From positions 384,001-448,000 of the forward strand of contig JAHQJS010000006.1 of assembly GCA_019057385.1 (NCBI GenBank): a DNA stretch of 64,000 nucleotides, given 5' to 3'. Below are positions 34,516 to 37,020 of this stretch, one piece after another. Positions within the stretch are counted from its first letter, which is position 1. Each line of letters starts with the position of its first letter. The position numbers were made by a program, and so were the translations under genes. The stretch comes from Candidatus Borrarchaeum weybense (GTDB lineage Archaea > Asgardarchaeota > Sifarchaeia > Borrarchaeales > Borrarchaeaceae). The notes below the pieces were generated by a model that was not told the DNA's origin, ran no database searches, and saw only the letters and a program-made list of their open reading frames with translations.

Positions 34516-35343
34516 TCAGAAGATTTGCGAACTTTTTTTCTTTAAAAGCCCTGAGGCACCTTTTCTAATATCTTTTCCTTCTATCGTCTTCCTTTGAGAC
34601 GTACTTGCAATATTGGCTGCCCTTACGACAGTTTGAATGATTATATTTTCTAAAATATCTCGGAGAACATCTGGTGCATCTTGGCCTATTCTTTTTGCAC
34701 CAGCATCTTTTAGTAATCTCCTCATTGTAGTCTTTTTTAACTCATGTGTGTATAGTTTTGTTAAATCCCATCTTCTAATGAAATTTACAATAGCATCAAT
34801 GAGATCCCTTTCTCCTAATTTTCTATTTTTAGCTGCGATTTCGAGTTGAACAGCATGCACTCCTCTTGAGATCTTTCCGTGATACGATACGATATCACCG
34901 CCCATATACTGAGGTGCCTCCATAAATGCATATTCACCCTGAATATCTCTTGCTTCGAGTTCTTCACGGAGCATTTCAATATAATCAACGTCAATAGTAA
35001 CTCCACCAGACGTGCCAAATAAAACAGTAATTTCTTCGAATGATGTAATTGGTTTTTCCATACCATGAATGTCTAAGAGAAGCACTTCTGAATGAGTTTT
35101 AAGGAGATCAGTGATGATTTCTTGAATCCTCTTACGAAAAGGTGTGTCTCTCCACTTAGCCCTGTTGTAGTCTTTATCTTCACGTGAGACAGTCGCAATC
35201 AAGGCATATGCTCCAACTTCGATTGCAACTCTATATGCTATTTCACCTGTTAAGAGATCTGCACGTGGACCCATAGCATGAGGCGCCGTCAATAAGACTG
35301 GTATGTCTCCAGGAATCTCAATAAATCCTTTTAAAGTCAACAT
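34516..35343 (-). CDS. N-formylglutamate amidohydrolase-like Zn hydrolase fused to a C-terminal archaeal histone fold
   Basis: LLTAPH, ADLLTG, DYNR, LLDIHG, VQLEI; then ELKKTTMRRLLKDAGAKRI...RKTIEGKDI. ATG at 35343 has GTGGAG upstream (track start 35427). Confidence 0.85.
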   Translation of the reverse strand: MLTLKGFIEIPGDIPVLLTAPHAMGPRADLLTGEIAYRVAIEVGAYALIATVSREDKDYNRAKWRDTPFRKRIQEIITDLLKTHSEVLLLDIHGMEKPITSFEEITVLFGTSGGVTIDVDYIEMLREELEARDIQGEYAFMEAPQYMGGDIVSYHGKISRGVHAVQLEIAAKNRKLGERDLIDAIVNFIRRWDLTKLYTHELKKTTMRRLLKDAGAKRIGQDAPDVLRDILENIIIQTVVRAANIASTSQRKTIEGKDIRKGASGLLKKKSSQIF

Positions 35344-35544
35344 ATTTTTCTCCACAGACTTCGATGACCTCATAGAATTCCCTTGTGACTGCGGTGACAG
35401 AATGCAAAACTTCTTGATTACTTTCAATTCAAGGCTTATAAAAAAATATTTTATAATTGCTTTGTATTTATCTAGCGATTAAGATATTGCGAATCATCAA
35501 ACACTAACCTCATTAGACGAAATATATCTGTTTGAGGGATCGAT

Positions 35545-37020
35545 TTGGGTGTCATCGAAAATATTTGTCGTGAGTACGAAGTTGCTATCGGACTTGAAGA
35601 GGAACTGTTAATCATTTCAAAGGATGGGACACTTGTAGCTGCTGCAGACCAACTGATGGAAACTGCTGCAAGCCTATTGAACCAAGATGCCGAAAGACTG
35701 GAACGTATAATGTTGAAAATTAGGTCTCTGGATCCAGAACCCAACCTGGCACAAATTGAGCATGTGAGTTTACCGATTCCACTTTCAGAAGTTCCTTCAG
35801 CAATCACCGAAGGAAGGGCGCTTCTCTTAGATTCCGCAAAAAGCCTAGGCTATAAATTGTTTGTTCAAAGTTTACACCCTCTTGAGAGCAATCCACATCC
35901 TATGTGTGGAACTCATATCAATGTATCTGCAAAACGAATAGCTAACGAGATAATGAATCCTAAAGAGATATTAGCCGTATACAACCATCTTTGGAATCAT
36001 CTTCCAGAGCTCATAGCCTTATCTGCAAATACGCCAATCATTCAAGGAGAGAAGGGAGCGGTTAGTAATCGTGTTCTGAACTCAACTGTTCTGAAACCAA
36101 ATCCTTTTGGAAAGTTACAGATCCCTCGTCATCAACCTGCTTTAGTTCAAAATGAATACTATGGTGCCCTACGCTACTCGTTAAAAATAGGTGCACTTGA
36201 AAAAGAGCCAACAATAATCGCAAACACAACAGGACATAGATTACGCGACATTACACCGCGCGGCCCCTCTACAAACATTTCAGACGATAAGGAAGATAGT
36301 TTTACTCGAAATCGTATTGAAACAAGAATTTTTGACAATCAAAGAGAACCGAGAAGGTTAGTAGACTTATCGAGAATTGTGAGTGGGCTTGCAATTGAAG
36401 CACTGTGTCTTTTAGAAAAGGGCAGCCAAATTATTGAAAACCGTGCTCATGCTGTAAATCGAGAAAGAGCGATTTTAGATGGCATAAATGCCACTTTCTT
36501 ACATGAAAAGAATGGTTCTGTCATAGAAATTCCTGCTAGAGAAAGAGTTCTTGAAATGCTTAATCGGACAGAGATGCACAGAGAACTTCTAGGCGCAAAA
36601 CTTCAGACTGATTTGAAAAATGCAAAGACTGAAGTAGAAATAAAACGACCTCGCTTAGAAGTTGCGTATTCCAACCCTGAATTTGAACGTTTGCGAAGAA
36701 GTGGTAAAACGGTAGTATCCGTTCGCTTTGGAAAGGTTAAGAATGTTTCGGACATACGAAGTAGCAAGAAATATAAGATTTCGAGAGGTCAGACTATTAC
36801 AGGAAAACTTGGAATTGGGCTTTCTTTGACTTTTGATGAATCAGAAGCAACTCCAGGTCTAGTAACTGATTTCAAGGATGTTTTAATGAAAAACTATCTG
36901 CTGGTTTCAAGTATCCGTATTCCTCTCAATGAGTCGGATGAAATCATTGCTGCGATTTCTGAAGAAGAATACATGAGGAGACAGTTTTTTGGTGCGGATG
37001 CCTTTCCGTACTTTTTTTAA
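35545..37020 (+). CDS. GCS2/YbdK-family carboxylate-amine (gamma-glutamyl) ligase with extra C-terminal domain
   Basis: IGLEEEL, QIEH, HP..CGTHINV, LPELIALSANTP, SNR, RIETRIFD. Confidence 0.85.
   Translation: MGVIENICREYEVAIGLEEELLIISKDGTLVAAADQLMETAASLLNQDAERLERIMLKIRSLDPEPNLAQIEHVSLPIPLSEVPSAITEGRALLLDSAKSLGYKLFVQSLHPLESNPHPMCGTHINVSAKRIANEIMNPKEILAVYNHLWNHLPELIALSANTPIIQGEKGAVSNRVLNSTVLKPNPFGKLQIPRHQPALVQNEYYGALRYSLKIGALEKEPTIIANTTGHRLRDITPRGPSTNISDDKEDSFTRNRIETRIFDNQREPRRLVDLSRIVSGLAIEALCLLEKGSQIIENRAHAVNRERAILDGINATFLHEKNGSVIEIPARERVLEMLNRTEMHRELLGAKLQTDLKNAKTEVEIKRPRLEVAYSNPEFERLRRSGKTVVSVRFGKVKNVSDIRSSKKYKISRGQTITGKLGIGLSLTFDESEATPGLVTDFKDVLMKNYLLVSSIRIPLNESDEIIAAISEEEYMRRQFFGADAFPYFF

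Follow-up and report, generated by a model that had tools for sequence, protein, structure and literature searches.

Examining the window, a 64,000-nucleotide stretch of the genome of Candidatus Borrarchaeum weybense (contig JAHQJS010000006.1, positions 384,001 to 448,000), we found that two head-to-head genes, one encoding a zinc amidohydrolase of the FGase type fused to a histone fold (P0001) and the other a ligase with a YbdK/GCS2 fold (P0002), belong to a pairing that is conserved among Asgard archaea and beyond. A functional writer/eraser link between the two genes is well supported, and we lean toward the reading that ligase and hydrolase form a conserved module that makes and breaks a gamma-glutamyl amide. 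According to this reading, the ligase would spend ATP to activate the gamma-carboxyl group of free L-glutamate and couple it to an amine acceptor (R-NH2), with its basic SH3-like C-terminal domain packing on the catalytic domain and probably aiding acceptor binding, and the FGase-type zinc amidohydrolase would break the same gamma-glutamyl amide again. In Sifarchaeia/Borrarchaeum, the hydrolase has acquired a histone fold at its C-terminus and would sit on DNA as a histone-fold dimer, as is to be expected because this fold keeps DNA-contact residues, and one compact divergent promoter region is common to both genes.

Conservation of the pair and displacement of the partner

The ligase is present in 77 of the 400 Asgard genomes surveyed, and every strong match to the FGase-domain profile in these genomes (E value below 1e-40; 16/16) adjoins it directly. 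The first-pass annotation, which was made from the sequence of the window and proposed that the two enzymes reversibly tag chromatin proteins, had adjacency in one genome as its only link between them and called for a test of neighborhood conservation; the linkage instead extends across lineages, with the pair found in Sif, Heimdall-type, Njord, Baldr, Korarchaeia (Methanodesulfokora), Geothermarchaeota, and Methanobacteriota metagenome-assembled genomes (MAGs). Its orientation is divergent in three families (the Sif families and one Heimdall-type family) and co-directional in three others, often with the genes overlapping or a few base pairs apart. Outside the genus, ligase and hydrolase are the sole genes of the neighborhood still together, and the two proteins diverge in parallel, with paired identities of 92/95, 91/91, 89/85, 55/51, 45/39, and 37/38%. 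Such parallel divergence, together with adjacency conserved across phylum-level lineages in two orientations, effectively refutes the explanation that the genes serve unrelated processes and lie side by side fortuitously. The junction is no assembly artifact either, because independent DNA contigs from other studies (marine, marsh, and mangrove sediments) bridge it. Neighboring UPF0047, MIPS, methyltransferase, and radical-SAM genes were considered as parts of the module and rejected, since they are kept only within the genus and hence reflect synteny.

Surveying one genome per species (79 loci with organism names) by hidden Markov models from our own alignments, with representatives checked against Pfam, we found an amide-cleaving neighbor of the FGase, GGACT, and/or C26 type beside the ligase in 77 loci; the two partnerless loci are both cut at contig ends. 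An FGase-type gene adjoins the ligase in 21 loci, 4 with the histone fold, 1 with an MTH865-like domain, 9 with a gene for a TTL/YheCD/RimK-like ATP-grasp protein, and 7 others. A gene for a GGACT gamma-glutamylamine cyclotransferase lies directly downstream of the ligase in 46 loci, and a class-I glutamine amidotransferase (GATase)/peptidase C26 gene is present in 45, mostly after GGACT and, in 11 loci without GGACT, directly after the ligase. One Heimdall-type locus holds both FGase and GGACT, and in one Heimdall locus a gene weakly resembling class-II GATases is present as well. What is conserved is the adjacency of the ligase to an enzyme that cleaves, or in the case of the FGase type would cleave, gamma-glutamyl bonds.

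In a ligase tree (a quick maximum-likelihood search, rooted at the midpoint only and with long branches), FGase-linked ligases occur to either side of the midpoint, and all 54 GGACT/C26-linked ligases form one branch, with a Shimodaira-Hasegawa-like approximate likelihood ratio test (SH-aLRT) value of 99, implying one change. The sister of this branch is the Sif clade plus the locus with both FGase and GGACT. On this tree, GGACT/C26 displaced FGase once, and the FGase-type partner looks like the older state. Since the partners that take the place of FGase are all breakers of gamma-glutamyl amides, the displacement speaks for an amide of this kind as the product of the ligase and for its removal by the FGase-type protein, and it is the strongest evidence for this chemistry. 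Catalysis by GGACT depends on a free alpha-amine in the glutamyl group, so the donor would be free glutamate rather than the C-terminal end of a protein tag. No conserved small open reading frame (ORF) for a Pup- or LysW-like carrier was found in 15 loci, where only shadow ORFs inside large genes turned up, and a Pfam scan of the ligase (E value up to 1) returned GCS2 only and no Pup-ligase family; the locus thus has neither the tag ORF nor the PafA/Dop-family ligase of Pup-type tagging. We infer the glutamate donor and the directions of the two reactions, as well as the acceptor, for which a small amine or peptide, possibly DNA-associated (e.g., a polyamine), ranks above a protein lysine.

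The cassette that looks older, found in the Njord, Baldr, and Kor lineages, has three genes, the third being that of the ATP-grasp protein. Similarity to GSH-S_ATP is seen in six of seven members of this ATP-grasp family, the best match in the PDB is a weak one to TTLL7 (E value 1.8e-4), and a search with its profile found it neither in this genome nor in four further genomes that carry the ligase.

Other genes accompany the ligase in particular lineages. In Methanobacteriota MAGs (L105 5937-7411, L107, and L108), a gene for an Amidohydro_2 TIM-barrel metal hydrolase (132 bits) separates the ligase gene from a short gene of the FGase type. In two Heimdall-type loci (L026 4185-5860 and L042 8895-10569), the FGase-MTH865 gene is followed by a gene for a PAC2 proteasome-assembly chaperone, which also adjoins Pup systems (PMC2588565), and in L026 a CDC48-type AAA ATPase is encoded ~1.6 kb past a ligase-GGACT pair, in this one lineage only. 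The sole GGACT domain of the present genome lies inside a 479-residue protein (G000:C4, ~103.1-104.5 kb; L030 736-2175, minus strand), of which the other ~350 residues match nothing and whose Sif relatives share a 465- to 512-residue form; it may be a displaced cyclotransferase partner in a new architecture.

The two proteins and their shared upstream region

Coordinates of the hydrolase-ligase locus in the window.
Feature	Position	Strand	Remarks
Hydrolase-histone gene P0001	34516..35373	-	~285 residues from likely start M19; the open frame reaches a TTG at 35427 (ORF 34516-35427)
FGase-type (PF05013) zinc amidohydrolase domain	34762..35340	-	residues ~30-222
Nucleosomal-type archaeal histone fold	34561..34743	-	residues 229-289, followed by a Lys-rich tail up to the stop codon
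Shared divergent intergenic region	35374..35544		A/T-rich 8-bp inverted repeat at 35436-35456
Ligase P0002, catalytic domain, YbdK/GCS2 fold	35545..36621	+	residues 1-359 (whole gene 35545-37020)
Ligase P0002, C-terminal domain, basic SH3-like beta-barrel (modeled)	36622..37020	+	residues 360-491

The ligase matches PF04107 (GCS2) above the gathering score (27.1 bits versus 21), as a partial match confined to residues 132-176, and all 60 of its homologues carry this family. Its AlphaFold model (predicted score in the local distance difference test [pLDDT] 89, predicted template modeling score 0.83) has the glutamine-synthetase-like fold of the GCS2/YbdK superfamily with catalytic acidic, His, and Arg residues, and the best solved matches are YbdK structures 1R8G and 1TT4 (E value ~1e-12, template modeling score by target 0.66-0.68), with glutamine synthetases, plant glutamate-cysteine ligase, and PafA (46th) ranking below them. 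The motifs G16-x-E18-E19-E20, H124-x-N126, and E259-x-R261 are invariant in 31 family members, among 44 invariant columns that include E18-E20, E65, E72, H111, H124, N126, E155, R176, R232, R239, E259, and R261. Because these motifs and some 40 other positions are invariant, the family is predicted to consist of active enzymes. Relative to YbdK, there is an insertion of ~28 residues between profile positions 179 and 250. The ExE, HxN, and ExR motifs, the insertion, and a basic, beta-rich C-terminal domain had all been pointed out in the first-pass annotation, and each is borne out here.

That C-terminal domain (~130 residues), modeled alone, is beta-rich (pLDDT 80), and its isoelectric point (pI) is 9.4-10 in every member checked. 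A Foldseek search of the PDB, which the first-pass annotation had called for, gave no match below an E value of 1e-3, and VIA-align gave Z scores of 5.3-4.0 to SH3b cell-wall-binding domains, the BirA C-terminal domain, WYL, and Hfq, a generic likeness that marks the modeled domain as a small barrel of SH3-like type bearing a long hairpin. Searching 1.84 billion representative proteins with its profile returned 33 matches. In full-length proteins, the match falls on the C-terminus of a ligase-sized chain of 463-490 residues; apart from a few weak matches to longer, unrelated proteins, the others are shorter fragments. By this distribution, the domain is private to this ligase family.

Subfamily models place the ligase less closely. 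It scores 40.3 bits with TIGR02050 (YbdK) against a cut-off of 176.4 and falls far under every cut-off of the glutamate-cysteine ligase/YbdK equivalogs (NCBIfam TIGR02050 and NF010039-45). These weak matches to glutamate-cysteine ligase models, the corresponding names that homologues bear in their sources, and YbdK as the nearest fold would fit a role in glutathione-like thiol or peptide metabolism, which we judge quite unlikely: the ligase would be a gamma-glutamylcysteine or similar dipeptide synthetase, its neighbors would take part in gamma-glutamyl-cycle turnover, and the histone fold would be a dimerization module. The GSH-S_ATP-like ATP-grasp of the older cassette (6/7 members) is in line with such a role, and Iyer et al. 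(2008; PMC2588565) interpreted analogous bacterial ligase neighborhoods with AIG2/GAT genes in this way, inferring a small-molecule role. The equivalog scores nevertheless speak against it, as do the failure to find the ATP-grasp by profile in this genome and the four others and a search of this genome for gamma-glutamyltranspeptidase, which found none. Moreover, GGACT-family members generally favor gamma-glutamyl amines over gamma-glutamyl alpha-amino acids, and thiol metabolism would leave the DNA-contact residues of the histone fold and the private basic domain of the ligase unexplained. The matches to PF02955 (GSH-S_ATP) in this genome are ~300-residue ATP-grasp ORFs, and they are uninformative on glutathione because the family also matches control archaea not known to make it.

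The hydrolase matches PF05013 (FGase) at residues 96-199 with 47.2 bits against a cut-off of 28.9. Invariant in 15 homologues are H50, R82, D86-x-N88, P96, R98, D119-x-H121, GGDI176-179, and Q194-x-E196; the conserved blocks align with the SR..DxNR, HS, and QIE blocks of the solved FGase 2Q7S, and the presence of the SR..DxN, DxH, and QxE blocks places the protein in the FGase family. A role as HutG in the histidine pathway was considered and ruled out, the HutG equivalog TIGR02017 scoring only 27.8 bits against a cut-off of 278.75 and this 100%-complete genome containing no urocanase. Orthologues at 94-51% identity retain both the FGase and the histone domain. The FGase forms of Njord, Kor, and Geothermarchaeota are extended at the N-terminus by a helical segment and lack a C-terminal domain, and the divergently encoded FGase of Heimdall/Hod-type genomes has an MTH865-like domain in place of the histone (26.8 bits versus 25).

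The histone part of P0001 scores above the cut-off of the archaeal histone model NF043032 (53.4 bits versus 50; 38 bits with PF00808) and aligns end to end with HMfB (1A7W), HPhA (1KU5), and the HMk doublet (1F1E). It has the full alpha1-L1-alpha2-L2-alpha3 of an archaeal nucleosomal histone, and equivalents of the HMfB DNA-contact residues R10, R19, and K53/T54 are kept in most of nine fusions, that of R10 in eight of them; in two fusions the RKT triplet is changed, to RTT and RTI. The domain has a pI of 10.4 and a Lys-rich tail, and the fusion is predicted to bind DNA, as judged from the contact residues. The His of the "HAG" motif, a dimer-dimer (four-helix-bundle) contact required for hypernucleosome growth, is replaced by S, T, or K in all fusions; the free histones of the genome keep H-A-G, and the loss may bear on how the fusion oligomerizes. 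The fusion is confined to the Sifarchaeia/Borrarchaeum-type clade, in proteins at least 51% identical to P0001, and neither the text of Schwab et al. (2024; PMC11390915) nor a 2026 preprint on Asgard chromatin mentions a hydrolase-histone or other enzyme fusion. The genome also encodes six free histones, of which one bears an N-terminal tail rich in Lys. If read from an upstream TTG, the free histone at G000:C5:100612-100797 (L035) has a ~20-residue Lys/Arg-rich N-terminal extension and resembles the tailed Asgard histones of the literature.

A nucleosomal-type histone fold with DNA-contact residues on the hydrolase brings up the target favored by the first-pass annotation, namely that the ligase gamma-glutamylates lysines of histones or other chromatin proteins and that the hydrolase joins histone dimers or hypernucleosomes and erases the mark, which we consider unlikely. 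Several features would suit such a mark besides the fusion itself: the basic SH3-like barrel of the ligase, a fold that often binds peptide or nucleic acid; the ATP-grasp of the older cassette, whose characterized relatives modify proteins (the similarity being weak); the presence of six free histones, one of them tailed; the place of PafA in the superfamily of the ligase; and the lack of an intermediate enzyme between the making and breaking steps, which fits a reversible mark. However, the histone fusion occurs in one clade, most ligases pair with GGACT/C26 enzymes that have no DNA-binding domain, and in most lineages bearing the ligase no part of the module has one. To our knowledge, all characterized GGACT, C26 (PuuD and folate gamma-glutamyl hydrolase), and class-II GATase EgtC-type enzymes act on small gamma-glutamyl compounds. 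The Pfam scan of the ligase without any Pup-ligase family, and YbdK as the closer fold, likewise count against a protein mark. The functional pair of the first-pass proposal therefore stands, through conserved linkage and partner swaps, but its chromatin-protein target is not supported: the fusion is clade-limited, relatives carry an MTH865-like domain or none, and the partner families are small-molecule enzymes. Also doubtful is a version for Sifarchaeia-type Asgards in which the ligase writes a reversible gamma-glutamyl chromatin mark on histone lysines or DNA-bound polyamines, and a hydrolase that inserts into histone assemblies erases it.

Between the two genes, the gap from ORF to ORF is 117 bp and that between likely starts is ~171 bp, so of the earlier description, head-to-head across ~200 bp, the orientation holds and the distance comes out shorter. 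The hydrolase-histone gene probably starts at 35373, because 281-residue homologues begin at the residue matching M19. Within the shared region lies an A/T-rich inverted repeat with 8-bp arms (TTATAAAA-5 nt-TTTTATAA), kept as a block in three same-genus genomes (with one substitution in one) and degenerate in a relative of 55% identity; it may represent back-to-back TATA boxes or an operator. Close homologues carry the source names Sifarchaeia or Promethearchaeota, and the nearest named genomes are those of Candidatus Borrarchaeum yapensis (92%) and Candidatus Sifarchaeum (89% and 55%). An ORF at 35472-35807 (minus strand) overlaps the ligase start and was judged a shadow frame. In one wetland metatranscriptome, three 151-nucleotide RNA contigs fall on 36426-36894 and zero on the hydrolase, too few to speak for expression or silence.

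This arrangement raises a further reading, to which we give a small but real chance, about as great as that of the chromatin mark: the pair would run a small-molecule cycle, and the add-on domain of the hydrolase, the histone fold here and the MTH865-like domain in the Heimdall-type lineage, would bind the shared intergenic region and control both genes, making the hydrolase an autoregulating trigger enzyme comparable to PutA or BirA. Both lineages whose hydrolase has a C-terminal add-on are divergently arranged, and the co-directional operons have none; the conserved inverted repeat could then be the site of binding. The correlation between orientation and add-on rests, however, on two independent lineages, the repeat may be two TATA boxes, archaeal histones show little DNA sequence preference, and MTH865 has no shown DNA-binding role.

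Weighing the proposed make-and-break module and its significance

Several points weigh against a make-and-break cycle on a gamma-glutamyl amide. On the ligase side, the chemistry is a prediction in which the term "carboxylate-amine ligase" leaves the carboxylate unfixed, and YbdK itself is only weakly active for gamma-Glu-Cys. On the hydrolase side, the amide that FGase members hydrolyze lies at the alpha-nitrogen of glutamate and is not a gamma-amide, and P0001 could target another bond, such as that of an N-acyl-glutamate or of a C-terminal glutamate made by the ATP-grasp of the older cassette. Class-I GATases, among the displacing partners, include true amidotransferases. A ligase and a hydrolase by themselves would undo each other's work in a futile cycle, unless regulation, or intermediate steps encoded at other loci, prevented it. 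Finally, DNA binding by the fusion is predicted from conserved residues, and the histone fold may serve dimerization only. Prediction of a complex between the ligase and the FGase domain gave a score of 0.00, which says nothing either way about binding.

No known relatives of eukaryotes are closer than the Asgard archaea, in which chromatin regulation is an open question that a histone-fused enzyme could bear on. An enzyme fused to a nucleosomal-type histone fold and linked to an ATP-dependent amide ligase is a candidate for chemistry on DNA-bound substrates, and a chromatin mark, if true, would be a system of modification with no relation to the acetyl and methyl machinery of eukaryotes. Even if the substrate is a small molecule, the pairing defines an archaeal ligase family with a private domain and a clean non-orthologous displacement among three or four families of gamma-glutamyl-cleaving enzymes, and it hints that the FGase fold has a new activity.

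Elsewhere in the window, a histone-deacetylase-domain protein (PF00850, 242 bits) is encoded at 2724-3797 (plus strand), ~31 kb from the hydrolase-histone gene. A 407-residue IscB-like protein with RRXRR and HNH domains (PF14239, 204 bits) is encoded at 4161-5682 (minus strand), and just upstream of its gene is a HEARO/omega-RNA match (RF02033, 67 bits, under the gathering score of 83; E value 7e-13). Both belong to a GC-rich island at ~4000-5950, with a guanine-plus-cytosine content of 0.50-0.56 compared with ~0.37 around it, which appears to be an IscB/OMEGA element that this Asgard genome acquired. Small Ras/Arf-like GTPases are encoded within 5 kb of the cassette in 8 of 17 loci from three lineages (window 33412-33915, minus strand; L028 2880-3548; L045-L047). 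This proximity is probably due to chance, because the copies share only ~25% identity and Asgard genomes are rich in such GTPases.

Comparison with known systems

Among solved structures, Escherichia coli YbdK and other GCS2 ligases (PF04107; 1R8G and 1TT4) share with the present ligase the fold and the set of metal, ATP, and glutamate motifs. The ligase is nevertheless only 14-15% identical to YbdK, matches Pfam only partially with subfamily and equivalog scores far under their cut-offs, has ~28 extra residues in the 180-250 region, and carries a 130-residue basic SH3-like domain where YbdK has a short C-terminus. Closest in gene arrangement are the families described by Iyer, Burroughs, and Aravind (2008; PMC2588565), with GAT-like thiol peptidase/AIG2 neighbors, in which a GCS2-sized ligase likewise adjoins a gamma-glutamyl-cleaving enzyme without any Pup-like ORF. 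Those families are bacterial, whereas the present one is archaeal with a C-terminal domain of its own, and its FGase-type partner looks older and is histone-fused in one clade.

Like PafA and Dop with their gamma-glutamyl-lysine isopeptide, the pair would combine a writer from the same ligase superfamily with an eraser. However, the eraser here is an unrelated zinc amidohydrolase rather than a paralogue of the ligase. There is also no Pup gene, GGACT partners imply a free glutamate donor, and PafA ranks structurally below YbdK and glutamine synthetases. The pathways of PuuA/PuuD, EgtA/EgtC, and butirosin BtrJ/BtrG similarly couple ATP-dependent gamma-glutamylation with removal by C26/GATase or GGACT-type enzymes, the same partner families as here, but they have modifying enzymes in mid-pathway, for which no conserved gene is seen in the present loci, and their hydrolases have no DNA-binding domain. 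With the N-formylglutamate amidohydrolase HutG (2Q7S), the hydrolase shares PF05013 above the cut-off and the common motif blocks; it differs in being a minimal domain of ~190 residues that is always linked to the ligase, fused to a histone in this lineage, and encoded in a genome without urocanase.

The older cassette, which pairs a TTL/YheCD/RimK-like ATP-grasp with a zinc amidohydrolase, recalls the TTLL glutamylases with their CCP deglutamylases, and RimK. That similarity is weak (E values 1e-4 to 1e-9), FGase is not an M14 carboxypeptidase, and the ATP-grasp was not found in this genome. The Rab-GTPase histones of Schwab et al. (2024; PMC11390915) also join a histone fold to a globular non-histone domain in Asgard archaea, but those are truncated in alpha3, whereas the nucleosomal-type fold here has alpha3 complete and is joined to a hydrolase. 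Thus, the combination of a carboxylate-amine ligase with an enzyme that cleaves gamma-glutamyl bonds is known from other systems, and what is new is the private C-terminal domain of the ligase and its histone-fused partner of the FGase type.

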